Below, piece by piece: positions 2,562 through 39,599 of a stretch of 39,599 nt of DNA; within the stretch, counting starts at the first letter, position 1, and each line of letters begins with the position of its first letter. The stretch comes from Actinomycetota bacterium. GTDB lineage: Bacteria > Actinomycetota > CADDZG01 > WHSQ01. Both the position numbers and the translations under genes were made by a program. The stretch is taken from positions 1 through 39,599 of the forward strand of contig JBOGWW010000295.1 of NCBI GenBank assembly GCA_050693655.1. Direction: 5' to 3'. The notes beneath the pieces are model-generated. The model worked only from the letters and a program-made list of their open reading frames with translations, had not been told where the DNA came from and did not search any database.

Positions 2562-4058
2562 TTAGAGTCCCGCCTCCCTGGCGGCGTCGTGGCCGCCCAC
2601 GATCGGAAGCGTCACTCTGCTCAGCTTCGTGGAAAGCTCGATGTTGGCCCTCGTCTGGTCGGCGAGGCTGCCGTAACTCGGGTAACTCCCCACGACGATC
2701 ACTCCGATCTGGTGGCCCGGCTTGAAGACGTAGTCCTCGGGCAACAGCGGGAAGTCGAAGTTGTAGACCTTACCCGCGACCAGAGGCACGCCCTCCAAGT
2801 AGGAGTAACGATTGAGCGCGTCGAGGACGCCCTTGGTCACGACCTCGCGCGATTCCGTCGTCACCCGCCTCTCGGTCTGCCGGTAGCAGGGATCGTCGGC
2901 GGGGCTGGTCTCGCCCCAGCAGTCCTCCGTCGCTAGGGTTCTTATGCCCTCGCCGCTCAACCTGTGGGCCACGCGCGTGTCGGTGCCGTAGTCGACCAGG
3001 ATGGCGCCGAGGTTCGTGTCGGTCTGGTCGGCCGAGGCTCGCAGCCTCACCAGGGGCGTACCCGTGAAGTGCAACGGCTGCTCGAGCGGTTCGGAGAGAA
3101 AGGCAAGCCGGTTGGGCTTGAGGATGGTCTCGTCGCTGACCATCGTGGTTTCGTTCTGGTTGGGATTGTCCTGAAAGGGACGCGTGGTGGGCTTGCCTCC
3201 GGCCGGAGTCAGCCCCACCTCTCCGGCACCGTTCGGGTCACCGGGGTGCAGCCAAACATGCGTATCGTCGGCGGAGGGATGCGGCCACGATTCGTATGTC
3301 TCCCACTCGTCGGCCTCGCGCTCGACGTCGGCCATGGGCTCGTCCATGATGCCGTTCGGAACTCCCTGCAGCCAGTAGTCGAACCAGCGGTGCAGGGTGG
3401 CGACCCATTCCGCGCGCCGGAAGTCGAAGGGATCGACGTGGCCCGTCTGAGTGAGCCACAGCTTGCGCGGCACGTCGTTAGCCGCGAGACCGTACCACCA
3501 CTTGCTGAAGTGATCCGGCTTGACGTTGTTGTCGTTGATCCCGTGGACGACGAATACGCTCGCATCGACGTTGCCGACATGGGGGTTGTAGTCGCGCTCC
3601 GCCCAGAAATCCGTGTAGTCACCGTGCTCGTCCCCGTCGATGGCGCTCATGTGGTCACGAACCGGCCGGCAGTACTCGCGCCGGTCCGGATTGGTCACCG
3701 TGTTAGAGAGACTCGCGGGATAGTTGTTGCGCGTCCTGATCCCGTTGCTGCGGGTGTAGTCGTACCAGCTTGAGATCGCGGAGATCGGGACGATCGTCGT
3801 GAGCCCTTCGACCCCCGTCGCAGCGACCGCGTTCGCCAGCGTCCCATCGTAGGACTTGCCGATCATCCCGGCCTTGCCGTTGTCCCAGGTAGCGGTCACC
3901 ACATTGCCGTCGGCGTCGTACCCGGTCGCGCGTCCGTTGAGCCAGTCGATGGCGACCTTGCCGCTGAGGTTGTCGGGCGTACCGCCCGTCACCGGACATC
4001 CGGTGGAGTTGTTCGTCCCCACCATGTCGAGGAGCATGACGGCGTACCCGCGCGGCAC
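2562..4058 (-). CDS. Xaa-Pro dipeptidyl-peptidase (peptidase S15, PepX/CocE/NonD family), apparently missing its N-terminal region
   Basis: The ORF shows AVIDWLNGRA, the nucleophile elbow GKSYDG, an Asp candidate in HGINDNNV and a His candidate in QTGHVDP. The first possible start is the GTG at 4058. Family-like sequence continues in frame upstream to the secA stop codon with no start codon in between (see findings). Confidence 0.8.
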   Translation of the reverse strand: MPRGYAVMLLDMVGTNNSTGCPVTGGTPDNLSGKVAIDWLNGRATGYDADGNVVTATWDNGKAGMIGKSYDGTLANAVAATGVEGLTTIVPISAISSWYDYTRSNGIRTRNNYPASLSNTVTNPDRREYCRPVRDHMSAIDGDEHGDYTDFWAERDYNPHVGNVDASVFVVHGINDNNVKPDHFSKWWYGLAANDVPRKLWLTQTGHVDPFDFRRAEWVATLHRWFDYWLQGVPNGIMDEPMADVEREADEWETYESWPHPSADDTHVWLHPGDPNGAGEVGLTPAGGKPTTRPFQDNPNQNETTMVSDETILKPNRLAFLSEPLEQPLHFTGTPLVRLRASADQTDTNLGAILVDYGTDTRVAHRLSGEGIRTLATEDCWGETSPADDPCYRQTERRVTTESREVVTKGVLDALNRYSYLEGVPLVAGKVYNFDFPLLPEDYVFKPGHQIGVIVVGSYPSYGSLADQTRANIELSTKLSRVTLPIVGGHDAAREAGL

Positions 4059-17205: not shown

Positions 17206-18129
17206 TTACAGCTTCAACTCGGCCTGCCCTAGCAAGCGCCCGAGCTTCCGAATGAAGGTAGCTCCTTGAGTCCGCATCACGAGTCGCGTTAGGCGGAGGA
17301 CCTTCCAATCGAGATCGACGTAGAAGTTGCCTCGAGCGGCATCCCGCTCAAGCGACTCGAAGCCCTCATGCCATTCGTGGCTATCGACCTCTATTCCAAC
17401 ACGAACTTCGGGCCAGGCGAAATCCAGCCGGCGTCGCTCTCCTGCGTCGCTTGTAACCCAGTGCTGGAGCTTGGGCGGTCTGAATCCGTGTGAATCAAGG
17501 AAGTTCTTCGCGTCTATCTCGAGCGGTGAGTCCGTGCTCGCCCCGCCAATCCGCTCCCGAATCAGCGTTCTGAGGATGGCTGTCCCTCTGCGCCCACGAC
17601 TTCCCACTTCGTCGAGTCGGGACAAGATGAGGGCCGGGTAGGTGAGACGCTGTCGTAGCGCGGAATCAAGCGCCTTTTCGAGTGCGGTGGGATCCAGCAC
17701 CCCGGCGAGGTCGATCAAGGTAGAGGTTGGATCCGTAACGGTGAAACCCCTGTAACGGACCGTGTGCAAGGGACTGCCGCACCTAGTTCGGTGGACGATG
17801 ATGCCCGGCGGAGGTCTGCGTCGGAGCCGCGAGGAGACCTCGATCAGTCGGTCGTGAACTCCATCCAGGTTCCAGAGTCGAGCTGCGGCTCGGTGCGAAA
17901 CGAAACCCTCTGACCATAGACACGCGGCCATCAGCATGGTTTCCCAAACCAGCCGCGTCCCCCGGATGCAATACACGCCGGTGAGGACCTTCAGCCAACG
18001 CCCAGAAGTCAGCCGGTGCTCGATCGAACGATGGGTCAGGCCGCACGCTACTGCCTGGGAGCGGCGAAACACGCCGTGTTGCCGCTCGGCCCACTGCTCG
18101 CAGCATTGGTCGGCCGCGAGAAGGCTCAT
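17206..18129 (-). CDS. DUF559 endonuclease-like protein with an AbiEi_4-like N-terminal wHTH domain
   Basis: The N-terminus (HGVFRRSQAVACGLTHRSIEHRLTSGRWLKVLTGVYCI) is typical of this family. The C-terminus (RLDFAWPEVRVGIEVDSHEWHEG...RDAARGNFYVDLDWKVLRLT) resembles the Vsr/DUF559 fold. I place the start at the ATG at 18129. By eye, GC looks lower than in the neighbouring genes. Confidence 0.8.
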   Translation of the reverse strand: MSLLAADQCCEQWAERQHGVFRRSQAVACGLTHRSIEHRLTSGRWLKVLTGVYCIRGTRLVWETMLMAACLWSEGFVSHRAAARLWNLDGVHDRLIEVSSRLRRRPPPGIIVHRTRCGSPLHTVRYRGFTVTDPTSTLIDLAGVLDPTALEKALDSALRQRLTYPALILSRLDEVGSRGRRGTAILRTLIRERIGGASTDSPLEIDAKNFLDSHGFRPPKLQHWVTSDAGERRRLDFAWPEVRVGIEVDSHEWHEGFESLERDAARGNFYVDLDWKVLRLTRLVMRTQGATFIRKLGRLLGQAELKL

Positions 18130-18178
18130 GGAACCATCCCACCGGTGTTTCGCAGAACCCGCTGTGACGTGAGTCACA

Positions 18179-18225
18179 GAGGCGTGGAAATTCACTCACA
18201 CCATAGGGTGAGCAGATGTCCTCAG
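18179..18225. repeat. 47-nt imperfect direct repeat, right copy, flanking the DUF559 gene
   Basis: gaggcgtggaaattcactcacaccatagggtgagcagatgtcctcag is in the same orientation as 17088-17134, 1091 nt away. It is immediately preceded by the palindrome ctgtgac-gtga-gtcacag (18162-18179). Confidence 0.7.
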
Positions 18226-23950: not shown

Positions 23951-25372
23951 CTAGTTCTGCGGCCCTCCGAAGTCGGGCTGGCCCATGACCGAGGAGGCGT
24001 CCGAGCGACCCTCTTCCCAGGCCACGCGCTCGGCCACGATGCCGCCGCCCTCGGAGGTCACCGCGAGAAACGCTCCCCGACTCGACCCCAGGTCGTCGAG
24101 CGAGACCGACACCCGTAAACCGGCCGGCACCGTGATTCCCTGGAGTTGCTCCGGGCGTGCACCTTCCCCGGACCCGTTGTAGACCACCACGTCCACCGTC
24201 GCGTCCCGCGGGGTCGGATTCTGAAGGACCAGGGATTCGGTCGTGGGCCGGGTCGAAGGCGGCGCCACCAGCCAGGCGTCCGAGGCGCGCGTGGCTCCCA
24301 CCTCGGTGATACGGCCGGTCATCTGGCCGCCGTCAAACACGGTCGTGGAATCGGCCACGATGGGAACCTCGTTGTCGACCGTAACCACAGCGCTTACGCC
24401 GCCGACATTGCGTCTCCTCGCGTCCAGCCGGTTGGCGACCGCCAAACGCGTCGCGGATTGGGGCGGGACTGCGATCTCGATGAGCTTGGAGGACTGGACC
24501 GGCCCCTCGTTCGTCGACAGGGCCACCGAGACGCTGGACTCCTGCTCGTTGGGGTTCATGAGGGTGATGGTCTGCCGGGCCTGCCCGCTCACCTCGCCCG
24601 CGGGGAAGTACCACTCGGTGGCCGGAGCGGGAGCACCCAGAGAGAACTCGAGGCCCGGGGATTCACCCTCCGGATTCGTCCACAGCGCTTTCCAGGCGAT
24701 GACCCGGCCGCGCACCGAGTGCAGACGAACGGACAACAGGTCTTGGGGAATGGCGGCTCCGCTGATGGAGACGACCTCGACCTGCCCGGAGGCTACGGCG
24801 ACCTCGGAGAGCTGCGCCGATGTCTCCTCGCCCTCCTCGGTCAAGAAGTTGACCCGGACCACCGCCTCGTCGGGGAACGGGTTCGCCACGACGAGCCGGT
24901 AGTCCGTTGCTACCGAACTGTCGCCGCTCGGGAAGTACCAGTTCTGCGAGGAGTCCGTGGCGCAGGTACCGGCCCCCACTCCCTCGACGGTCCCCGAACG
25001 TCCGACTCGAGCGTTCACGAAATGAGAGGTGGCAGCCGCGACCGGTGAGCCAAAGCCCTCGGCCACCACCGGTTCGGGGGTCTCGATCGGGCGCGTGACC
25101 GTGGATCCGGCGGACAGCTCCAGAGGCTCAGGCTCCGGGGGTTCGAGTTCGACCGGGACCACATCCGGCGACGCGGTCGCGAGCGAGACATTCGCCCCCG
25201 ACCCCTCCTCGAGGATTCGAGAGGAACAGAACTGTGCCCGTTCGAAAAACGGGGGGCCCGGTTGCTCGGCCGAGGAGGGCTCCGCGTCATCCGTCGCGAG
25301 ATCGAACCCGATACCGGCGAGCATGAGCACGGCCACCGCGATGAGCAGCGTCAGGTCACGCATGCGCTCCAT
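23951..25372 (-). CDS. Membrane-anchored extracytoplasmic protein of unknown function (DUF5719-like), coupled to the GT2 gene
   Basis: An N-terminal TM helix (LTLLIAVAVLMLAGIG) is followed by a long beta-rich region with repeated WYFP(S/A)G motifs. Its ATG at 25372 overlaps the TGA of the upstream GT2 gene. The family assignment is from memory. Confidence 0.55.
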   Translation of the reverse strand: MERMRDLTLLIAVAVLMLAGIGFDLATDDAEPSSAEQPGPPFFERAQFCSSRILEEGSGANVSLATASPDVVPVELEPPEPEPLELSAGSTVTRPIETPEPVVAEGFGSPVAAATSHFVNARVGRSGTVEGVGAGTCATDSSQNWYFPSGDSSVATDYRLVVANPFPDEAVVRVNFLTEEGEETSAQLSEVAVASGQVEVVSISGAAIPQDLLSVRLHSVRGRVIAWKALWTNPEGESPGLEFSLGAPAPATEWYFPAGEVSGQARQTITLMNPNEQESSVSVALSTNEGPVQSSKLIEIAVPPQSATRLAVANRLDARRRNVGGVSAVVTVDNEVPIVADSTTVFDGGQMTGRITEVGATRASDAWLVAPPSTRPTTESLVLQNPTPRDATVDVVVYNGSGEGARPEQLQGITVPAGLRVSVSLDDLGSSRGAFLAVTSEGGGIVAERVAWEEGRSDASSVMGQPDFGGPQN

Positions 25373-28300
25373 CAGGAAGGCGGCCTCCTCTTTTCGCTCC
25401 GGCGGCTCGGGAAGGCGGCTCCGATCATGAACAACCACAGCAGGGGCAGCACCACCAGCCACGCGTAGTCGATCAGGGAGCGGGAGAACTCAAGTTCGAG
25501 CGGCGCCTCATCACCGCCGGGAAGATCGAACGCGTTGCCCCACCCGGACTCGGTGCGTTCCAACTCGTCCCCGCCGCTCGTCGCGCTCCAGTTCTCGTCG
25601 CGCGTCTCGGCCAAGAAGACAACTCCCGGTACCGAGACCTGAGAAGCGCGGTATTTCGAGGGATCCTCGCGCGCCAGGATCGCGTGCTCGGAGGGAGGTT
25701 CGCCCGAAGCAATCGTGGGATCCTCCTCCGAGATCGCGGCCACGTAGGGAGGGAGCTCCTCGTACACCGCCGCGCGCTCCAGGGCCGCGGCGTTCTCGAA
25801 CACGAGGAAGTCGCTCTCGCTGCGGATCAGAGCGAGGTCACGCTGCGCTCGCCAGGGACGCGTCTCGGAATCGCGGTCGACGATGATGAATCGAATGTTG
25901 AAGCTTCCCAAGAGGCTTCCCGCGCGGTCGGTCTCTCCCGACTGGATCGAGCCGACGACCTCCTCCAGTCGTTGAGCGCCGTCGCCGGTGTTGCCCGCGA
26001 AGAGATCGTCGAGAGCGGGACCATTCGGGTCCGTCAGGAAACCGGCCCAGTGGGGACGAGCCGAAGTGGCGGCCCCGCCGGTCCAATCCCGCCCCACCCA
26101 AAGCGCCCGGAAGTCCCCTTGGCGCGCAGAGTCCGCCCGCAACAGCGCGGTGATCTGATCCGTCTCGGTCGCCTCGGGCGCGCTGCCATCGCCCATTCCG
26201 GGGGCCCAATCCCCTCCCGCCAGCGTCGGGGCCAGGCCGGTGACGGCCAGAAACAGCGCGGCGGCGAGTCCGGCAACGGTGACCCCCTGCACGAGTCCGA
26301 ACCCTCGTCGGGGGAGGTCGAGACGAAAGGCGCCGACCGCAAGACCGGCCAGGCCCGAGAACGAGAGAGAGATCAGAACGCCCATCTCCGTCGGCGAAGC
26401 GACCGCCGGGGCCAGGATCCCCGACGCGGTGGCCGTCACGAGAAAACCCATGCCCACGATCAACGCCCAGAGTGCGATCGCCAGCCGGCGCCGTTGCCCG
26501 GCTCCGGTGGCAACGGCCACCACTCCCAGAACGGGAAGAGCAAGCCCCAGCAGCACGGGACCCTCCGGAGTCTGGCCGAGCAACACGCTGATCATCCCGT
26601 GGCCGTTGAAATGAGTGACGAAATCCGCGTAGGGCGCCCCCGCATTCAGGACCGACAGCGCGCCACCCTCGCTCGCCCAGCTCAGACTCCAGGGCAAGAG
26701 CAGCGCCCAGCCGAGCGCCAGACCGATAAGGCATCCGCCGAGCCCCTTCAGTTCGGTCCCGGCCCTCCCCACCACCGTGCGAATGGCGGTCAGAAGCAGG
26801 GCCGCGAGGAGGTAGAGGAACAGAGAGCCGGGCACGAACGCGGCCGATAGGGCCGCGAACAGCCCGAGGGTCGCCACCTCGCGTCCCGCCGACCAGCGCG
26901 CGGGTCGAACCCAACCGACCAGCCGCAGAATCGACAACAGCACGTAGGGGGCAGCCGCACCGAAGACGAGAGATCCCAGCGCGCCGGCGCGCAGGCCCGC
27001 GTAGCCGACGGCTCCGAGCACGTACACGACACCCGTCGTGAAGCGAGCGGGACGATCCACCAGTTCGGAAACGAGCCGCGTGGCTCCGAAAAAGGCGGCG
27101 GCGGCCAGCAGCAGGAGTAGGAGCTTCTGGGCGAAGCCCGCCGCCCCGAAACTGACAAACTGCACCACACCCAGTACCAGGAACGACGTCGGGGCCGGTC
27201 CGGGACCACCCAAACCGGCGTCCTGCCAGGGCGAGGCCCACTGGCGCCACATCGATGTCGCGCGTCCGGGAAAGGGCAAGAGCTCGCCGAACGTCGCGGC
27301 CGGCGCCCAAAAGAGGTCTCTGAAGCCCAGAACGACAAACACGAGGATCGCGATGACCGCGGCGATCTGCCAGCCCCTGATGCGTGCCGTGGCGGCGCGC
27401 GCTTGAGTCGTCCGGCGAGACACGATGTCTGCCCTGCGGCCCCAGGTCTCCTCCAGGCGTTCTGCTTGGTCGAGCGCGTACGCCCCCAAACGCGCCGGGA
27501 GGCGCACCATGAGCCGCGTCAGTTCGGTGTCGGTAACCTTTCGAGTGCTTTGCACCCGCCTGCGCTCGCCCAGAGTCTGCGGGAATCGCACGAGATTCCA
27601 CGTCAGCGCGCGCCCGAGATTCCCGACCTCACGTGGTTCCCGGAGTATGAGAAAGCTCAACATCTCGCCGATGGTCAGCAACACGAACAAGGGGATCAGC
27701 GTCAGGAGACGCAGCCCCGACGCGTTCTTGGTGATCGTGTGGAGACGGTTGCGACGGATGAAGTAGCGCGGGGGCCCGAAGCGCGTCGAGCGCTGCCCCC
27801 TCGCCATCGAGATTGCGTGTCGCGCCCTCGCTGCGGGTTCCAGCCTCACCGTGTACCCCAATAAGCGCGCGCGCCAGCAGAGATCCAGGTCTTCGCTGTA
27901 CGCGCCGAGATGCGCATCAAAACCGCGCATGCGCTTGAAGACGTCGTGGCGGATGAGCATGACCGTACTGGTTACGTAGAAGACCTCGGTCGAACGGTCG
28001 TGCTGACCGAGGTCGATCTCTCCTTGTTCCAAGCCCTTGTAGGGGTAGCCGAAACGGTCGATCGCCATGCCGACCTCTTCGAGGATGGTCGGATCGCTCC
28101 AGGAGACGATCTTGGGTCCCACCACCGCCGTCCTCTCGTCGTCCCGCAGCCGTTCGGCCATTCTCGCCACGGATTGAGGCGTGAGCGCGGCATCATCGTG
28201 GACGAAGAGCAGATAGTCGGCGTCGGTCCTGACACGAGAGAGCGCCCAGTTGATCGCAGCGCCGTACCCAAGGGGGCGCGGGGTGCGCAGATAACCCCAT

Positions 28301-28554
28301 CTCCTTCGACGAACGTGACGCTTGACGATTCGCTTGAGACGCGGTTCCTCGCGCGGGCGCGACGATGCATCGTCCACGACCAGGATGTCGAGGTTCTCGT
28401 AGTCTTGGTTTGCAAGCGCGACGAGGGAGTCCCGAAGCCATCGCCGGCCGTCGTGCGTCACCACGATGGCCAGAACGCTCGGCTGTTCGGGAGGTGCACT
28501 CACCGCTTCCGGGTCCCAGGACCCGCGCGGCACCGAAGTCGTCTCAGTACTCAT
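25372..28554 (-). CDS. Family-2 glycosyltransferase fused to a large polytopic membrane domain (1060 aa)
   Basis: GT2 motifs are present at the N-terminus (VLAIVVTHDG, ILVVDDASS, FVHDDA, EDLDLCWR). These are followed by about 700 aa of hydrophobic segments. Confidence 0.85.
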   Translation of the reverse strand: MSTETTSVPRGSWDPEAVSAPPEQPSVLAIVVTHDGRRWLRDSLVALANQDYENLDILVVDDASSRPREEPRLKRIVKRHVRRRRWGYLRTPRPLGYGAAINWALSRVRTDADYLLFVHDDAALTPQSVARMAERLRDDERTAVVGPKIVSWSDPTILEEVGMAIDRFGYPYKGLEQGEIDLGQHDRSTEVFYVTSTVMLIRHDVFKRMRGFDAHLGAYSEDLDLCWRARLLGYTVRLEPAARARHAISMARGQRSTRFGPPRYFIRRNRLHTITKNASGLRLLTLIPLFVLLTIGEMLSFLILREPREVGNLGRALTWNLVRFPQTLGERRRVQSTRKVTDTELTRLMVRLPARLGAYALDQAERLEETWGRRADIVSRRTTQARAATARIRGWQIAAVIAILVFVVLGFRDLFWAPAATFGELLPFPGRATSMWRQWASPWQDAGLGGPGPAPTSFLVLGVVQFVSFGAAGFAQKLLLLLLAAAAFFGATRLVSELVDRPARFTTGVVYVLGAVGYAGLRAGALGSLVFGAAAPYVLLSILRLVGWVRPARWSAGREVATLGLFAALSAAFVPGSLFLYLLAALLLTAIRTVVGRAGTELKGLGGCLIGLALGWALLLPWSLSWASEGGALSVLNAGAPYADFVTHFNGHGMISVLLGQTPEGPVLLGLALPVLGVVAVATGAGQRRRLAIALWALIVGMGFLVTATASGILAPAVASPTEMGVLISLSFSGLAGLAVGAFRLDLPRRGFGLVQGVTVAGLAAALFLAVTGLAPTLAGGDWAPGMGDGSAPEATETDQITALLRADSARQGDFRALWVGRDWTGGAATSARPHWAGFLTDPNGPALDDLFAGNTGDGAQRLEEVVGSIQSGETDRAGSLLGSFNIRFIIVDRDSETRPWRAQRDLALIRSESDFLVFENAAALERAAVYEELPPYVAAISEEDPTIASGEPPSEHAILAREDPSKYRASQVSVPGVVFLAETRDENWSATSGGDELERTESGWGNAFDLPGGDEAPLELEFSRSLIDYAWLVVLPLLWLFMIGAAFPSRRSEKRRPPS

Positions 28555-33537: not shown

Positions 33538-34683
33538 TCACTTCGCTCTGGTCCCATGAGTCCACTCCGTCCAAGCGTAGTTCTTTCCCTTGCCGGTGTT
33601 CTTGAACTGACGCCATGGGCGCCGGTCACCGTACCAGAACACAGCGAGCGCGGGCACGTGATCTGAGTCGGCCGAACCTCCCGTTCCCCACCAGCCGCCG
33701 AAGCCCTGGTGCCACCTCCACAGGCGGTCGAAGGCCCTTCGTAGTGCGGAATCAGCCCAACGAAGAACACCGTATCCGCGCCGTCTCAGCAGCTCAGCCT
33801 GCATGGTGACGCCCTGCAAGCTTCCCCATACATAGTTGGTCTTGCGAGGTGGCCATGAAGCGGGCCCACCTCGAGCCAGCTCTGTGGCAAGAACCCCACC
33901 GATGCTGCGCTTAGCTCCGTCGATCCTCTTCGTGCACCCTTTGGGGTTGATTCCGATTTGCCGCTTGGTGCAGAGCCATCCACGGTCACCGTTGAACGAG
34001 AACCCCCTGTACGCGGATGAAACTCCCAACCAGCCCCTGAACACCCTCGCGGCTCGCTTTAGTTCTCTCTTGTCGCCGAGGTAGATGGCTGCGGCGATCC
34101 GGCTGCCGCCCGACATCGTGCCGTGGTTCGTCAGTATCTCCTGGTGTCTCTGGGCTAGGGTCCTGTCGTCGACCTTCATCCTCAGAACGGACCCGAGCCA
34201 TTCCCGCCACCTGGCTTCTCGGGCGGATTCGTAGGCCCGGAAATTGATGAGATCCGCCGCGATTATGTAGCTGGACAGGTTCCGGCCCAGCGAGGTGTTC
34301 GCCGCACCTTCCTCAGTGCCGATGGTCGCCATCAGAGCGTCAGCCACGCGGGCGCGATAACGCTCGGCCCTCCTTCCTGGATATGTCCGAGCGAAAACGA
34401 GAGCTCCCGCCAGCGTGTAGACATCGTGATGCGAATCGTTATCGGCGACGTCAGCCCGCCCCCAGTTGTCGCTCGCAGCGGACTTCATCCGTTTCCACCC
34501 AGGGCCTCGCTTCGGTATCGACCGAAGCTGGGCTCTACCAATCCACATCCCGTAACGGACGGGTTTAGCTGATACCCGAGCGCCCCTGGGGGTCATCGAC
34601 GGTGAACGGTCGGGCACCCCCGGTAGCAAGACGGCCATCAAGATCGTGGCGAGCACCACGGCGCGCAAGACACTGATTCGCAT
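33538..34683 (-). CDS. Secreted alginate-lyase-like (alpha/alpha-toroid polysaccharide lyase-like) protein, paralogue 1
   Basis: It has a signal peptide (MRISVLRAVVLATILMAVLLPG). By eye it is about 55-65% identical to the N-domain of the next gene. The TNHGTMSGGSRIAAAIYLGD stretch resembles the NNHSYW...region of alginate lyases. The ATG at 34683 is preceded by GGGGGAAG. Confidence 0.5.
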   Translation of the reverse strand: MRISVLRAVVLATILMAVLLPGVPDRSPSMTPRGARVSAKPVRYGMWIGRAQLRSIPKRGPGWKRMKSAASDNWGRADVADNDSHHDVYTLAGALVFARTYPGRRAERYRARVADALMATIGTEEGAANTSLGRNLSSYIIAADLINFRAYESAREARWREWLGSVLRMKVDDRTLAQRHQEILTNHGTMSGGSRIAAAIYLGDKRELKRAARVFRGWLGVSSAYRGFSFNGDRGWLCTKRQIGINPKGCTKRIDGAKRSIGGVLATELARGGPASWPPRKTNYVWGSLQGVTMQAELLRRRGYGVLRWADSALRRAFDRLWRWHQGFGGWWGTGGSADSDHVPALAVFWYGDRRPWRQFKNTGKGKNYAWTEWTHGTRAK

Positions 34684-34769
34684 AAGGCTTCCCCCAAAGC
34701 TCTCGCTTGCATTAAGCATCTGTCCTGAGCAAAGCGAGCAGCCTAGCAGGAGTAGCGGATGGATTAAAA

Positions 34770-34793
34770 CCCGATAGAGCGGGCCTTTTCGGG
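34770..34793 (-). terminator. Probable intrinsic terminator after paralogue 2
   Basis: The minus-strand RNA folds as CCCGA-N14-UCGGG (or CCCG-CUCUAU-CGGG) and is followed by UUUUAAUCC. It begins about 10 nt after the stop at 34803. Confidence 0.45.
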
Positions 34794-34802
34794 AAAAAAG
34801 GA

Positions 34803-36623
34803 CTATCCGGCCGGCTCTAGGGCGAGCACGTGGGCGATACTGGTTGATCTCTTTCGGAGCCGTGCGCCGCGCTTGCCCGCAGCACCCGCGGCCTCTATGA
34901 CCTGATCGGCGGCCGCGCTGCCCACTCTGTATTTTCCACTTGCGTTGAGCACCCGGAATCGTCTTGTCATCGTCCACGGAGTGGAAGCGATCGTCCTCTT
35001 CGGAACCCCTCCGAGGAATACCAGCACGGAGTCCGGGGTGGTGGTCTTGATAGAGGGCGCCCTCATCCTTCTCGAGCGATCGCTCACTCTGCCCCCCTGG
35101 GCGACGATGGGATCGTGGGGGTTCACGCCACGATAGGCGACCATGCCGCCGGCGGCGGGATGACTCCCGCGGAGGCCGAAGGCGTAGGTGGACGGCTCGT
35201 CGTGGCTAACCACCCGGTAGTACGTCGCCTTGAAGCTGACGTTGCCGTTGTCGTCGGAGCGAACCAACTTCCAACCACCGGGACGGGTGATCCTGGGGTT
35301 ACCGCGCACATCGAGCGTCGCGATCATCACATCTCCCGGCTCTAGTCCGGCCGGCACGGCCAGCTCGAGCGAATCCGATCGCCGCCCGTTGTCGCCACTG
35401 GTGGCTCCGACCGGAGCGATGCCGGATCCCGGCGGACGGTCGGGGTCCGGTTGGGGTTCGGGACCCGGCTCGGGTTCCGGTAGGGGTGGTGGAACGGTTC
35501 CAGAGGGCGCGCGCATGCCGTGGGTCCACTCGGTCCATCCGAAGTTCTTTCCGGCCCCGGCAAGCTCGGGTTGCCACCACGAGCGCTTGTGTCCGTACCA
35601 GAACGCAACGAGAGCGGGAAGGTGAGCCGAATCCACCGACGCACCATCCGCCCACCAACCGCCGAAATCTTGCTCCCACATCCACAGCCGGTCGAAGGCG
35701 CGCAACAGGGCCTCGTCCGACCACTGGAGCACAGGATAGCCCCGCCGCCTCAACAACTCGGCCTGCATGGTCGCGCCCTGGAGTCCGCCGCCGACGTAGT
35801 TGGTCGTGCCCGGAGGCCACTGTGCGGCACCCGACCTGATCTGCTCGGCGGGGAGAACCCCATCGATGTCCCGCTGTGCTCCGGCCACAAGGCGGGCACA
35901 GCCGGCTGGATTGATTCCGCGCAGCTTTGATGGGTCACAGAACCAGTCCTTGTCGCCGCCGTAGGTAAACCCGTCGTAGGCGGAGGAGTCTCCCAGCCAT
36001 CCCTGGAACACCCTGGCCGCCCGGCTCAGCTCTGCGCTGTCCCCCAGATAGATCGCCGCGGCGATACGCGAGCCACCGGACATCGTGCCGTGGTTGGTGA
36101 GACGGCGCTCATGCCTCTCCGCCAGCGTCATGCCGCCGACTTTCCTCTCGAGCAAGGCATCCAGCCACTGCCGCCACTGTGCCTCTTCGCTGGGGGCAAA
36201 ACCGGGAAAGTTGATGAGGTCCGCGGCGATCACATACGAGGAGAGGTTTCGTCCCAGGGAGGTGTCGGCAGGCTCGTTGTGCTCCGTTCCGATCACCGAC
36301 ATCAGAGCGTCGACGACCTTGACCCGATAGTGCTCTGCTTCGGGATGCGGGTAAAGCCGAGCAAAAACGAGCGCACCGGCGAGCGTGGACACGTCGTGCT
36401 TGGAGTTATTGTCCGAGATGTTCGCCGGCCCCCAGTTGGAGTCTGCGGCCGATCTCATCTGCGACCAACCCGGCCCCGACATGGGGATGGAGTCGAGTTC
36501 CGCCTTGCTTATCCAGATTCCCTTGTAGATGGGCTTGACGGCGGCGCGCGCTACTCCCGGGAGCGACGCCACAACGAGTGCCGACACCAGTGCGCCCGCG
36601 AGAAGCCGGCGGGTGAGTCGCAT
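34803..36623 (-). CDS. Secreted alginate-lyase-like protein, paralogue 2, with a Pro-rich linker and an uncharacterised ~190-aa C-terminal module
   Basis: It has a twin-arginine-like signal (MRLTRRLLAGALVSALVVASLPGVARA), a lyase-like domain, the linker PPPLPEPEPGPEPQPDPDRPP, and a C-terminal module homologous to the C-terminus of the ORF at 38643. AGGAG lies 5 nt upstream of the ATG at 36623. Confidence 0.55.
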   Translation of the reverse strand: MRLTRRLLAGALVSALVVASLPGVARAAVKPIYKGIWISKAELDSIPMSGPGWSQMRSAADSNWGPANISDNNSKHDVSTLAGALVFARLYPHPEAEHYRVKVVDALMSVIGTEHNEPADTSLGRNLSSYVIAADLINFPGFAPSEEAQWRQWLDALLERKVGGMTLAERHERRLTNHGTMSGGSRIAAAIYLGDSAELSRAARVFQGWLGDSSAYDGFTYGGDKDWFCDPSKLRGINPAGCARLVAGAQRDIDGVLPAEQIRSGAAQWPPGTTNYVGGGLQGATMQAELLRRRGYPVLQWSDEALLRAFDRLWMWEQDFGGWWADGASVDSAHLPALVAFWYGHKRSWWQPELAGAGKNFGWTEWTHGMRAPSGTVPPPLPEPEPGPEPQPDPDRPPGSGIAPVGATSGDNGRRSDSLELAVPAGLEPGDVMIATLDVRGNPRITRPGGWKLVRSDDNGNVSFKATYYRVVSHDEPSTYAFGLRGSHPAAGGMVAYRGVNPHDPIVAQGGRVSDRSRRMRAPSIKTTTPDSVLVFLGGVPKRTIASTPWTMTRRFRVLNASGKYRVGSAAADQVIEAAGAAGKRGARLRKRSTSIAHVLALEPAG

Positions 36624-36689
36624 TACCACTCCTTAGACCGGTCATCCGAGAAGCGGCTCGACCTCGAGCGCGGTCCACTTCACAACCGG

Positions 36690-36781
36690 TCACCTAGTCC
36701 ACGGCACCTAGCACCAGTAGTCCGGTTGGGTATGGATTGCCGACCGAGCTAGTCCCCAGGTGCTAGATCTCAACTAGGTGA
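36690..36781. promoter_or_regulatory. CTAG-rich nested inverted repeats upstream of paralogue 2, a candidate operator or leader structure
   Basis: The outer inverted repeat is tcacctagt (36690-98) / actaggtga (36773-81). The inner one is cctagcacc / ggtgctag. There are five CTAG tetramers within 84 nt, CACCTAG occurs twice and CTAGTCC occurs twice. Confidence 0.4.
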
Positions 36782-36838
36782 GACATCGGCGAACGCCCCA
36801 GCGGGCTTGAGCGGAAAACCGATTAGAAGCCAAAACAC

Positions 36839-36870
36839 AAGAGGGGGCAGCCGTCGGGCCACCCCCTCTT
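36839..36870 (-). terminator. Intrinsic terminator after the propeller-protein gene
   Basis: A 9-bp stem (aagaggggg / ccccctctt) encloses a 14-nt loop. On the minus strand it is followed by GUGUUUUGGCUU. It lies 20 nt after the TAA at 36891. Confidence 0.75.
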
Positions 36871-36890
36871 GCCTTAAGGTCCCCCAAGGA

Positions 36891-38462
36891 TTACCGGCGG
36901 AACCTCTTTGTCGACGACCGGCCGCCGAGGCATCTGATCGTCCCGGCTCCATCCTGGATCATTAGTCGTTTTACGACCGCGTAGTAGCGCCCTCTGCCGC
37001 CCCGCTTGTGGGGGGCCGACCATTTCCCGTTGCCGCGGCTGGTCGTGCGGGCGACGACCCTGTCTTTCCCCCGTCGTACCTTCTTGATTACCAGCTTCCG
37101 ACCTGAGATACAGCGTGCGTCGTCGGACTTCACCTTTCCGAGGAAGCGGTGCGGCCGGGCACGATGCTTCAGATTGGTTTTCGACTCGGCGGTGTTGGCG
37201 GGCGGCCCTGAGCCGCCCAGCCGGTTCCACCAGTAGTGGGAGCCGCCTGAGGCCATGACCACGATGCCGGAGGCGGCGGTCGCGTTGGCCTTCATGGAGG
37301 TCGCGTTGTTGATCGCCTCCCCGTTCCCTCCCCGGATGAAGGGCGTCGAATGCGTCGGGAACGAAATGTCATCGAGCGAGGTCGCCTTGTATTCGATCCC
37401 CTCGGCGAGATGCCCCTCGTCGATGGTCATGAACACGTAGGCCTTGTTCTCGCTCGGGTCGACGTGCAGCACTGCGATGGGGCGGGTCTTGTCCCCCTCC
37501 GAGCGGAACGTCACGGGATGGGGCTCCCAGGACCCCGATGGGGACCGCACGAGGAGGCGGATGATCGGCTGCTCATCGGCCGTGTGGCTGGTCTTGACGA
37601 CCGAGAAGATCTGATCTTGTGCGGTCTTCATGTTGATGTGGTCGTTGGCCTCCAGCGCACCACTCAGAGCCGTCTCCTCGCTCCACGAGGTGTCGGGAGC
37701 GCCATCACGGTGCACCGCGAAGGAGATCTTGTCGGCGCTCTGGTTGGACCACATCACTCCGATGGCGGGCCCGGTGTTGTCCGAGAAAGAGACGACTGCC
37801 GAGATGTCGTCAACGAGCACGCCGGTTGCCCCCAACACCGGTATCACGAACGGGACTCCCCACTGGGTGTGGTCGCTGCCCTCGGTCCGGGCGACGTATA
37901 TCTCGCCTCCCTGCTCGTAGCTCACCCAGAGGTTGTCGAGGCTGTCGCGCGCCAGGGTCAGGGCCTCCGGCCTCGTGCCCGGTACGGTGACCGGGACATC
38001 GAAATCGGTGTCGGGTGAGTAGCTTCCGCTCGCGTAGGTGAACCGCATCAGCTTGTTATCGCCCGCGTCACCGTTGGCGCGCGCCAGGATGTACAGCTTG
38101 TTTCCGAGCGACAGGACGTCCTCTTTGATCGAGGGTCTCGAGTCGATGACCACTCCGGTGCTGACCCAAGTCTCGTCGGCGAGTCGATGGATGGTGTGGG
38201 CCCCCTCCAGCTCCGGGTCGAGCATCGCGGCCCACCACTCGCCGTCGTGGAACCACAGCTTGGACTCCGGCTTCTGCCCGGTGATCGCCCGACCCGAGGG
38301 CTCCGCGTCGAAGCCACCGTAGGCATGCGATTTGAAGCCGACCTGCGAGCTCTGCTGAGCAACTGCTTGCGGGGGCACGATCTGAAGCATCGTGGCCAAC
38401 ATCACAAGTCCTAGAAGCGCAGCACCCCAACTGCGACGCCTTCCCCAACCTCGCTCCGCCAT
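36891..38462 (-). CDS. Secreted BNR/sialidase-like beta-propeller protein with a basic C-terminal beta-sandwich-like tail
   Basis: It has a twin-arginine-like signal (RGWGRRRSWGAALLGLVMLA...AVAQQ) and degenerate Asp-box-like motifs (GSDHTQWG, APDTSWS, SPSGSWEP). The C-terminus (CISGRKLVIKKV...GNGKWSA...GRYYAVV...C) resembles carboxypeptidase-regulatory-type domains. Confidence 0.5.
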   Translation of the reverse strand: MAERGWGRRRSWGAALLGLVMLATMLQIVPPQAVAQQSSQVGFKSHAYGGFDAEPSGRAITGQKPESKLWFHDGEWWAAMLDPELEGAHTIHRLADETWVSTGVVIDSRPSIKEDVLSLGNKLYILARANGDAGDNKLMRFTYASGSYSPDTDFDVPVTVPGTRPEALTLARDSLDNLWVSYEQGGEIYVARTEGSDHTQWGVPFVIPVLGATGVLVDDISAVVSFSDNTGPAIGVMWSNQSADKISFAVHRDGAPDTSWSEETALSGALEANDHINMKTAQDQIFSVVKTSHTADEQPIIRLLVRSPSGSWEPHPVTFRSEGDKTRPIAVLHVDPSENKAYVFMTIDEGHLAEGIEYKATSLDDISFPTHSTPFIRGGNGEAINNATSMKANATAASGIVVMASGGSHYWWNRLGGSGPPANTAESKTNLKHRARPHRFLGKVKSDDARCISGRKLVIKKVRRGKDRVVARTTSRGNGKWSAPHKRGGRGRYYAVVKRLMIQDGAGTIRCLGGRSSTKRFRR

Positions 38463-38642
38463 GCCGATTCTCCCCTTCGCCGGGCTGCGATCAGCTCGCA
38501 GGCAACCCCTCTGACGAGAGTCATTCTCGGTTGATAAGGGGGTATTGCACCAGGCACTTCGGTGGATTTCCGGCTAGGTAGTTTGCGCAAATCGCCACCC
38601 GCTCTCTTTGGAGAGGGCCCAGGAGCCGACGCTGAGGATCCA

Positions 38643-39599
38643 CTAGGGCCCGGGCTTGAGCGCCACCAGGTGAGCGATGCTGGGGGCGTCCTTGGCGGCG
38701 GTGGCGACCCGCTCACCGGTGGCCCCGGTGGCGGCGCGCGCCTCGGTGGCGCCGGCCGAGGTGATCTTGGACGAGCCCGTGGAGGCGAGGTCCCAGCGCT
38801 CGGTCATGCCCGAGGGCGGTGCGATCTGGGTGGCGCCCCGGATGGCGAAGGAGCCCACCAGCATGGTGTCGGGCACCGTGGTCGTGATGGAGGGCGCGGT
38901 GATGAGCGTCGACGAGGCGTTGACCTGGCCGCCGGAGGCGTCGACCGGGGCTCCGGTGTCGACCCCGGAGAAGGCCGCGATGCCGCCCGCCGCGCCGCGC
39001 TCGACGGGGAAGGTCCAGGTGTAGGAGGCCGGCTCCGAGGAGCCCGCGCTGCGGTAGTAGGTCTCGAGCTTCAGCGCCGAGCCGTTGACGTCGGAGCGGA
39101 TCAGGGTCCAGCCCACGGGCGGCGTCACCTGGGGCTTGCCGCGCACGTCGATCGAGGCGAGCATGACGTCGCCCGCCGCCACCCCGGCGGGCCGGTCGAT
39201 CGAAAGCGTGGTCGCGGTCGCGTTGGCCGCGGAGCTGGCCGCCACGAAGCTGATGTCGGTTGGGGCGCCGGGCTCGGTCACGGTGATCGTCACGGTCGCG
39301 GGGTTGGAGTCGAGCTCCCCGTCGGACGCCTTGAAGCTGAAGCTGTCGGTCCCGGTGAAGCCCGAGGCCGGGGTGTAGGTCACCTCGGCGGTGTCCGAGT
39401 TGGGGCTCTCGGTGCTGCAGGCCCTGTCGGTGAGCGCAGACAGGGTCCCGCTGGCCGGCGAGGTGGTGGTCGAGAAATCGAGCTCGCAGGTCTCGGGATC
39501 GGTGGCCGACAGGGTCACGGTCACGGCGGTGTCGGCCGGGGTCGTGGCGCTCGCGTCGGCCGCCGTGGGAGCGCTGTTGGGGGGAGGCTCTGAGCTGCC
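38643..39599 (-). CDS. C-terminal part of a large secreted Ig-like/cadherin-like repeat protein ending in the same uncharacterised ~190-aa module; runs off the right edge
   Basis: The frame is open to the window edge (GSSEPPPNSAPTAADASATTPADTAVTVTLSATDPE...). The repeat signature is EVTYTPASGFTGTDSFSFKASDGELDSNPATVTITV. The last 190 aa align almost without gaps to the C-terminus of the ORF at 34803. Confidence 0.7.
   Translation of the reverse strand, partial: GSSEPPPNSAPTAADASATTPADTAVTVTLSATDPETCELDFSTTTSPASGTLSALTDRACSTESPNSDTAEVTYTPASGFTGTDSFSFKASDGELDSNPATVTITVTEPGAPTDISFVAASSAANATATTLSIDRPAGVAAGDVMLASIDVRGKPQVTPPVGWTLIRSDVNGSALKLETYYRSAGSSEPASYTWTFPVERGAAGGIAAFSGVDTGAPVDASGGQVNASSTLITAPSITTTVPDTMLVGSFAIRGATQIAPPSGMTERWDLASTGSSKITSAGATEARAATGATGERVATAAKDAPSIAHLVALKPGP

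Follow-up and report, generated by a model that had tools for sequence, protein, structure and literature searches.

Four consecutive open reading frames (ORFs) on the minus strand, g1–g4, lie at positions 33,538–39,599 of contig JBOGWW010000295.1 from an Actinomycetota bacterium. We analyzed the entire contig (39,599 bp, hereafter the window) and refer to the four genes as the island. We estimate the probability at about 0.55 that they encode a duplicated module, made up of a lyase-like enzyme and a beta-propeller protein, whose substrate is an anionic exopolysaccharide, probably made by the same cell, and in which a C-terminal domain (CTD) is the targeting module. An earlier reading of the DNA letters alone (the sequence-only reading) had reported four consecutive minus-strand genes, which the ORFs confirm, and had proposed a glycan-processing system. 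The core of that idea is broadly supported by the adjacency of lyase-like and propeller genes in five phyla, a CTD shared by both partners, and polysaccharide-synthesis genes as neighbors of the homologs, whereas several of its details are wrong. By sequence comparison the island is two paralog pairs (g1/g2 and g3/g4), and not four proteins of different kinds as had been supposed. The genes and their domains, with lengths in amino acids (aa) and matches to local hidden Markov models (HMMs), are as follows.

33,538–34,683, minus strand: g1, lyase-like protein, predicted secreted, 381 aa, without CTD; paralog of g2
34,803–36,623, minus strand: g2, predicted-secreted lyase-like protein, 606 aa, with signal peptide, lyase-like domain, Pro-rich linker, and CTD
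35,517–36,524, minus strand: lyase-like domain of g2, PF05426-related, putatively catalytic (local HMM, E = 3e-145)
34,809–35,402, minus strand: C-terminal beta-sandwich domain (CTD) of g2 (local CTD HMM, E = 1e-69)
36,891–38,462, minus strand: g3, predicted-secreted beta-propeller protein, 523 aa, with a basic C-terminal tail
37,200–38,360, minus strand: beta-propeller domain of g3, with motifs QKPESKLW and ADDHINLK (local HMM, E = 2e-175)
36,891–37,199, minus strand: C-terminal ~100 aa of g3, very basic, with two Cys (delimited by model confidence and homolog coverage)
38,643–39,599, minus strand: g4, 3′ part (318 aa) of what is almost certainly a second propeller gene; open at the window end
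39,282–39,578, minus strand: Big_9/cadherin-like immunoglobulin (Ig) domain of g4, single copy (PF17963, E = 2.4e-12, fragment residues 8–106)
38,652–39,233, minus strand: C-terminal beta-sandwich domain (CTD) of g4 (local HMM, E = 1e-78)

Paralog pairs and their recurrence in other genomes

The two lyase-like proteins, g1 and g2, share 60% identity over 377 aa (E = 1e-160) and both exceed the gathering score of PF05426 (Alginate_lyase), in agreement with the sequence-only reading, which had called them tandem paralogs of the alginate-lyase type. The same reading had taken g4 for the end of a large cadherin/Ig-repeat adhesin. The g4 fragment (318 aa) is instead 81% identical to residues 409–724 of P0002, a protein of 727 aa that consists of a g3-like propeller, one Big_9 domain, and a CTD, and whose first 400 residues are 65% identical to g3. 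Because of this identity to the tail of P0002, g4 is almost certainly a second propeller protein, and the adhesin was rejected: the fragment holds one Big_9 domain and its relative P0002 has only 727 aa. Since the window is the complete contig, g4 is cut by the assembly end, and only its linker, Big_9 domain, and CTD lie inside the contig. The CTD is common to g2 and g4 (43% identity, E = 3e-43) and absent from g1 and g3; it is joined via the Pro-rich linker in g2, and via a linker and the Ig-like domain in g4.

We searched 80 propeller-centered loci from other genomes, each extending up to 10 kb to either side, with three local domain HMMs, and counted lyase-like matches with E < 1e-20 as strong. 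A strong lyase-like match lay within 10 kb in 14 of the 80 loci, and in 9 of these 14 the lyase-like and propeller genes were <400 bp apart. The nine close pairs come from Solirubrobacteraceae (L023), Chloroflexota (L025, L049, L064, L076, and L077), KSB1 (L029), Cytophagia (L035), and Terriglobales (L057), and so represent five phyla (Actinomycetota, Chloroflexota, KSB1, Bacteroidota, and Acidobacteriota); enrichment was judged from this repeated adjacency and not from a statistic. Two lyase-like and two propeller genes, as in the window, were found together in L029 and L035, at least two propeller genes in 22 of the 80 loci, three propeller and three lyase-like genes in L077, and three propeller genes in L032. 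A second, more divergent lyase-like/propeller pair in the same order was present in five loci (L027, L030, L057, L064, and L068). In a relative (L083), the lyase-like gene is followed by the propeller gene at a distance of 192 bp.

The surroundings of the homologs are rich in polysaccharide-synthesis genes. Among 113 neighbor ORFs from 17 loci with both families, the commonest Pfam families were nucleotide-sugar epimerases/dehydratases (7) and GT4 (5), together with Bac_transf (4), Wzy_C (4), Wzz (4), UDP-glucose/GDP-mannose dehydrogenase (3), and Wzx (3); phytase-like propellers also occurred four times. The gene order in L001 is Wzy, deacetylase, GT4, GT2, propeller, Wzx, APH, GT4, ATP-grasp, and that in L002 is Wzx, deacetylase, GT4, lyase-like, sulfotransferases, Wzy; in L083, L095, and L097, glycosyltransferase, Wzy/Wzz, or APH genes stand beside a lyase-like or propeller member. 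The sequence-only reading had seen no assignable pathway, which was too pessimistic in view of these homologs inside Wzx/Wzy-type loci. We also checked whether a 378-aa gene upstream of the L001 propeller gene is an overlooked member of the lyase-like family; it is not.

The genes most closely related to g4 and g2 are found in L099 and L100, respectively. Both loci have an upstream ATP-grasp gene (95% identical between them) that is 49% identical to the ATP-grasp gene of L001, and a sulfotransferase-like gene downstream in L100 is 52% identical to one in L002. Because these ATP-grasp and sulfotransferase-like genes recur in L001 and L002, a polysaccharide locus past the contig end, beyond g4, is plausible in the present organism, as judged from gene content in its relatives. 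L099 and L100 belong to near-identical organisms, in which the ATP-grasp gene (L099 1–818; L100 1–1032) is followed by the g4 ortholog in the former and by the lyase-like ortholog in the latter. Weaker homologs of this ATP-grasp gene (24–32% identity) are present in eight further propeller loci. APH-like kinases, sulfotransferases, metallophosphatases, and phytase-like propellers recur near lyase-like and propeller genes (L001, L002, L095, L097, and the neighbors in the 17 loci). The target polymer may be phosphorylated or sulfated.

The lyase-like, propeller, and C-terminal domain families

Against a gathering score of 22.2 bits, PF05426 matched g1 with 34.5 bits (E = 1.9e-8) and g2 with 35.3 bits (E = 1.1e-8), and 49 of the 54 lyase-like family members matched it as well (best E = 6e-16). 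A local lyase-like HMM, built from the 71 homologs returned by the search, matched g1 with E = 1e-121. P0122, a homolog 70% identical to g2, has the same architecture as g2, and elsewhere in the family dockerin, SLH, type IX secretion sorting, Big, fn3, CBM96, or metallophosphatase domains accompany the lyase-like core of ~340 aa in the same protein. Residues N179, R265, and Y278 of g2 are invariant across the 54 sequences; g1 keeps the TNHG, R, and Y positions. The His that follows N179 is present in g1 and g2 (TNHG) and is Trp in most family members. N179–H180 of g2 align with PF05426 positions 170–171 and the NNH of AlgL with positions 168–172 (agreement within about 3), and, because the TNHG of g2 and the NNHSYW of AlgL share these profile positions, the matched segment is the one that bears the catalytic Asn-His in PL5 enzymes. 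The catalytic residues we take to be H202, R249, and Y256 in AlgL, and N191, H192, R239, and Y246 in A1-III; the AlgL sequence used in the comparison agreed with the PDB alignment. The spacing from R to Y is 13 residues in g2 vs. 7 in AlgL.

A phmmer single-sequence search of the PDB with g2 gave no usable match, whereas AlgL as query readily found A1-III and the 7WXJ/7FHU lyases. Since direct comparison with solved PL5 enzymes fails, we assign g1 and g2 to Pfam family PF05426 and infer their PL5-like mechanism from the conserved residues. Their likeness to AlgL and A1-III consists in predicted export, a putative catalytic part of similar size (~340 aa), a PF05426 match above threshold over the NNH segment, invariant Asn, Arg, and Tyr that are collinear, in a nonsignificant alignment, with the catalytic Asn/His, Arg, and Tyr, and homologs inside polysaccharide-synthesis loci; AlgL itself is encoded within the alginate biosynthesis operon of Pseudomonas. 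They differ in that HMMER-profile and hhalign comparisons gave no similarity to solved structures, in the replacement of the His, mostly by Trp, in host loci that are of the Wzx/Wzy type and not of the alginate synthase type, and in their constant propeller partner and, often, a CTD.

The propeller belongs to an uncharacterized family. No Pfam or NCBIfam family matched g3, and a sequence search of the PDB gave no usable match. The AlphaFold2 model of g3 (mean predicted local distance difference test [pLDDT] 82; residues ~17–400 mostly >90) is a beta-propeller whose strand pattern suggests six to seven blades, and the pLDDT falls below 50 in the tail (residues 403–499 of a 499-aa gene call). 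When this model was searched against the PDB with Foldseek, the best match was 3H6J (PA2794, a "putative neuraminidase"; E = 1e-7, query-normalized TM-score 0.41) and the second was the ulvan lyase Uly1 (7DRQ; query-normalized TM-score 0.40), and lectins and a PL-family lyase scored like 3H6J. The sequence-only reading, which had suggested a sialidase-like propeller with degenerate Asp-boxes, was therefore right about the fold and not about the rest: the canonical Asp-box S-x-D-x-G-x-x-W is absent from g3 and from all 120 homologs, the relaxed form is also absent from g3, and the 25 commonest Pfam families listed across 46 propeller homologs do not include BNR or sialidase. A sialidase/BNR identity of g3 was rejected on the lack of Asp-boxes and of a BNR/sialidase HMM match. 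The proteins nearest in fold (PA2794, GH33 sialidases, Uly1, and fucose lectins) are, like g3, beta-propellers of ~380 aa and are its best Foldseek matches (E from 1e-7 to 1e-5), but their query-normalized TM-scores are 0.34–0.46 and their identities to g3 are 7–15%, g3 has neither Asp-boxes nor a BNR/sialidase Pfam match, and the g3 family has motifs of its own (QKPESKLW and ADDHINLK).

A word-limited search returned at least 243 propeller homologs, none with a family for the propeller part, and a scan of one genome per species gave at least 543 propeller loci, distributed over Actinomycetota (including cultured Micromonospora and Dactylosporangium), Chloroflexota, Acidobacteriota, KSB1, Bacteroidota, and others. 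Nineteen positions are invariant in the family, and D, H, K, and R residues occur among them (including H227, H251, K266, R303, and K335). In the 46 homologs whose fusions were listed, CBM96 was present in 6, and PKD, SLH, a Polysacc_lyase domain, and GT2 were also found; the founding CBM96, a module of the lyase Dp0100, binds internal alginate chains (PMC9971899). The aligned homologs, the best of which cover at most 88% of g3, lack its last ~100 aa, a stretch that may represent a small domain for binding or may have been gained recently. In Micromonospora and relatives (L020–L022, L034, L047, L070, L074, and L079) and in Dactylosporangium (L073 and L080), the propeller is C-terminal and preceded by an extension of 200–400 aa, which in Dactylosporangium shows a weak match to the CTD profile (E about 1e-11); within 10 kb of these Micromonospora and Dactylosporangium propeller genes we found no lyase-like gene.

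The CTD (~195 aa) is all-beta in a 204-residue AlphaFold2 model (pLDDT 98.2) made from a 60-sequence alignment, and no Pfam family covers the domain in any of the 60 members. Foldseek found no match to it in the PDB at E up to 1e-3 (best TM-score 0.30). Among predicted viral structures (BFVD), at the same threshold, there were 82 matches with TM-scores up to 0.89, including proteins of Mycobacterium phages Gaia and Tweety that are annotated as minor tail proteins and one from a Microbacterium phage with the annotation glycerophosphodiester phosphodiesterase. In sequence, the CTD matched PHROG 3329, 13624, and 6813 (E from 8.6e-8 to 3.4e-9); taken singly, the CTD of g4 matched PHROG 3329 with E = 8.6e-8, and g2, whose CTD matched 3329 and 13624, had a PHROG E of 3.3e-5. 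A tblastn search with the CTD returned nine actinophage records (Rhodococcus, Gordonia, and Mycobacterium phages) at 32–39% identity. In Rhodococcus phage Jflix2, gp21 (L094 3835–7830) is annotated as a minor tail protein and directly follows the tape-measure gene; it holds two tandem CTD-like domains at residues ~548–696 and 718–876 (ORF numbering; local CTD HMM).

In an exhaustive HMMER search, the CTD profile at E up to 1e-3 matched 36,926 cluster representatives, a count that may include Ig-like matches since the profile holds some flanking columns; at E up to 1e-30 the number was 4,572. Many of the matches comprise two to six matched stretches in proteins of 500–3,500 aa. Partner domains include Ig-like modules, metallophosphatases, GH16, and beta-helix. 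Ten loci carry propellers fused to the CTD, L049 and L064 have it on lyase-like proteins, and fusion to both families occurs in two phyla. On the simplest reading, the CTD would be a promiscuous extracellular targeting or binding module. It resembles the actinophage minor-tail-protein domain (PHROG 3329, 13624, and 6813) in sequence and in predicted fold, and differs from it in standing at the C terminus of predicted-secreted cellular proteins and not in a virion; the actinophage domain itself has neither a solved structure nor a Pfam model. CBM96 is likewise a beta-sandwich accessory module and takes the same accessory position as the CTD in other lyase-like and propeller members, but the CTD did not match the CBM96 Pfam model. 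Directly after the g4 ortholog in L099, at 3279–3883, a further CTD-coding stretch is split over two frames, which may reflect a frameshift in a stand-alone CTD gene or an error in sequencing.

Gene calls, spacer DNA, and the housekeeping flank

All three complete genes of the island start with an ATG that follows an AG-rich ribosome-binding site at 5–7 nt: g1 at 34,683–34,681, with GGGGGAAG upstream; g2 at 36,623, with AAGGAG 5 nt upstream, in a database gene call (P0121) likewise of 606 aa; and g3 at 38,462, with GGGGAG 7 nt upstream. The database gene call for g3 has 499 aa and starts 24 codons later; we kept the longer form because a ribosome-binding site is present and the signal peptide of the homologs is restored. 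The N-termini of g1, g2, and g3 resemble signal peptides (a charged and then a hydrophobic stretch), as the sequence-only reading had claimed for three of the genes, although this was judged by eye only. An Ala-x-Ala site is seen, also by eye, in g2 and g3, and a T-R-R-L-L motif in g2 could direct Tat export. In g1 a clean Ala-x-Ala cleavage site is missing; because of this and of its deviating base composition at third codon positions (GC3), g1 may be under relaxed selection.

Each gene had been credited with its own terminator and promoter region, and the intergenic DNA with an abundance of palindromes. Neither claim held up. Terminator-like sites were at chance level (4 found vs. 3.3 expected), and the only convincing one is the hairpin after g3 (36,872–36,837). 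No sigma-70-like promoter was found in the region, and a repeat scan gave only 11 short inverted repeats in 6.3 kb. The spacer between g3 and g2 folds well (z = -4.2), mostly due to the terminator hairpin, and Rfam gave no match in the spacers at E up to 1. Three of the five copies of CTAGGTG/CACCTAG in the window lie within 90 bp upstream of g2, and 1.6 copies are expected by chance in the entire window; we speculate that this cluster is an operator for some regulator. The two spacer features are as follows.

36,837–36,872, minus strand: intrinsic terminator 3′ of g3, with a 16-bp GC-rich stem, a 4-nt loop, and a T-run
36,691–36,780, no strand: three CTAGGTG/CACCTAG heptamers upstream of g2, from the motif count

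Base composition showed no uniform foreign-island signal. GC3 was 0.72 in g1 (z = -2.6) and 0.96 in g4 (z = +2.7), relative to 0.84 ± 0.05 in 21 housekeeping genes, and the composition of g2 and g3 was typical; no uniform signature of horizontal transfer was found. The position of the island is variable, because five relatives' contigs have no lyase-like or propeller genes there. Eight metagenome contigs share the DUF3105 gene (60–73% identity), most of them also carrying cofE, cofD, or fbiC, and in the 1.5–3.6 kb downstream of DUF3105 on five of these contigs neither gene family was found.

The rest of the window, from 211 to 33,507, consists of housekeeping genes throughout, so that our gene scan agrees with the boundary of about 33.5 kb given earlier. 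The block includes ribonucleotide-reductase small chain, RF-2, SecA, S-adenosylhomocysteine hydrolase, phosphoglucose isomerase, phosphomannomutase, L,D-transpeptidase, cystathionine enzymes, a membrane GT2 with DUF5719, FbiC, CofD, CofE, and DUF3105. The GT2 (1,060 aa) is fused to a long polytopic membrane half and followed by the DUF5719 gene (23,951–28,554); the membrane half accounts for a peak of AT skew at 26–27 kb, and the pair, 5–10 kb from the island, could make a surface glycan. Within the same block, a gene at 17,206–18,195 has an AbiEi antitoxin-like N-terminal domain.

Proposed function, alternatives, and significance

In the reading that we favor, all four proteins would be exported, and the lyase-like enzyme would cleave an anionic, probably uronic-acid-containing, extracellular polysaccharide by beta-elimination, with the invariant Asn, Arg, and Tyr doing the chemistry and the His helping in g1 and g2. 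The propeller would act on the same polymer as a second depolymerase, a debranching enzyme, or a binding subunit. The CTD would target g2 and g4 to the polymer or to the cell surface; g1 and g3 would diffuse freely. The substrate would most likely be the producer's own exopolysaccharide, and the outcome chain-length control, release, or remodeling. Fusions of family members to extracellular or carbohydrate-related domains (dockerin, SLH, CBM96, PKD, and Polysacc_lyase) were counted in favor of this reading. Depolymerases are known in or beside exopolysaccharide loci, PslG and PelA among them, and the likeness to such enzymes would lie in a secreted glycan-cleaving enzyme encoded with the synthesis genes of its target polymer. 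The present module differs in having other folds and families and in being two-component and often duplicated, with a putative targeting domain common to both partners. RbmB of Vibrio cholerae, an example of such a depolymerase, is reported to be a lyase acting on Vibrio polysaccharide (PMC11637428).

Several results count against this reading. The PF05426 match spans profile positions 131–212 of 275 (~30% of the model), the lyase-family profile found no PDB chain at E up to 10, and the hhalign alignment of the lyase family with AlgL (4OZV), although it places N/R/Y collinear with N-H/R249/Y256, is nonsignificant (probability 0.1); since Trp replaces the His of NNH in most members, the chemistry may differ. 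All top Foldseek matches of the g3 model in the PDB were propellers, with query-normalized TM-scores of at most 0.46, and because these structural neighbors are weak the propeller could be a lectin and not an enzyme. Only 14 of the 80 propeller loci have a nearby lyase-like gene, though many of the loci are short, and some homologs stand in unrelated contexts (L084, L085, and L098). No Wzx/Wzy genes were found in the 33.5 kb upstream on this contig, and the g4 side lies beyond the contig end; because the contig ends inside g4, the link to a polysaccharide locus rests, for this genome, on homologs.

The strongest competitor, to which we give perhaps one chance in five, is nutrient scavenging, in which the island would be a degradative system for foreign acidic polysaccharides used as carbon source, with duplicates of different specificity and with CTD or CBM modules that hold the enzymes on their substrate. 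Multi-copy arrays such as those in L077 and L032 are reminiscent of polysaccharide-utilization loci, fusions to dockerin, type IX sorting, and CBM96 domains are typical of degradative enzymes, no biosynthetic locus adjoins the island in the window, and its absence at this position in relatives would suit a niche trait. The neighborhoods of the homologs speak otherwise: the 25 most frequent neighbor families listed are mostly biosynthetic, and SusC/D, TonB, ABC sugar-uptake, and uronate catabolism are not among them. In L096, moreover, a series of Wzz, Bac_transf, GT4, GT2, Wzy, and Wzx ends with the lyase-like gene, which is encoded on the same strand as Wzy and Wzx.

It is unlikely, though less so than the explanations that follow, that the proteins are noncatalytic, with a lectin propeller and an inactive lyase-like scaffold forming an adhesion or matrix-organizing complex. 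The invariant Asn/Arg/Tyr and the invariant charged residues of the propeller are more typical of active sites, and some propellers are fused to a Polysacc_lyase or GT2 domain. Such a complex would agree with the fucose-binding lectins among the Foldseek neighbors, whose TM-scores are like those of the enzymes, with the nonconserved catalytic His of the lyase-like family, and with the binding role that Ig-like domains and a phage-tail-related CTD suggest.

We regard it as very improbable that the genes encode unrelated secreted proteins brought side by side by chance in a variable region. The strong terminator between g3 and g2, the heterogeneous codon usage, and the homologs that occur alone would be expected in that case, but adjacency within 400 bp in nine loci of five phyla, the recurrence of the two-plus-two set in KSB1 and Cytophagia, and the fusion of the CTD to both families in two phyla would not. 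Despite the homology of the CTD to a domain of annotated actinophage minor tail proteins, an origin of the genes as depolymerases from a prophage tail-spike or tail-fiber region is least credible of all and was rejected because no phage structural, integrase, or lysis gene was recognized among the scanned window genes and g1–g3 have signal peptides (by eye), a feature absent from virion proteins; furthermore, PHROG gave no match to either the lyase-like or the propeller domain, and about 37,000 cluster representatives, including many large multidomain proteins, match the CTD profile.

Depolymerases in polysaccharide loci are already known, and the lyase-like/propeller pairing, which is seen in no fewer than five bacterial phyla and most likely cuts or trims a sugar coat, is in this respect a useful lead rather than a surprise. 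For the propeller as a constant partner and for the phage-related domain common to both, we found neither a Pfam or NCBIfam model nor, in the literature searched, a description. Two protein families thus lack annotation, the propeller (at least 543 loci in species-representative genomes) and the CTD. For annotation, it follows from g4 that an Ig domain alone is insufficient ground for naming fragments of this type adhesins.

A bolder interpretation, which we offer tentatively and hold doubtful as it stands, is that the genes belong to a previously unrecognized, multi-phylum exopolysaccharide-processing set in which the propeller is a new enzyme family and the CTD a new carbohydrate-binding family, with tens of thousands of members, shared with actinophage tails. 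The data suggest that domains of phage tails and cellular enzymes acting on glycans are connected, and if this interpretation is true, host enzymes and phages would recognize the same surface glycans via the same module. If the module processes exopolysaccharide, it would offer access to the matrix polymers of little-studied soil phyla (uncultured Actinomycetota, Chloroflexota, Acidobacteriota, and KSB1).

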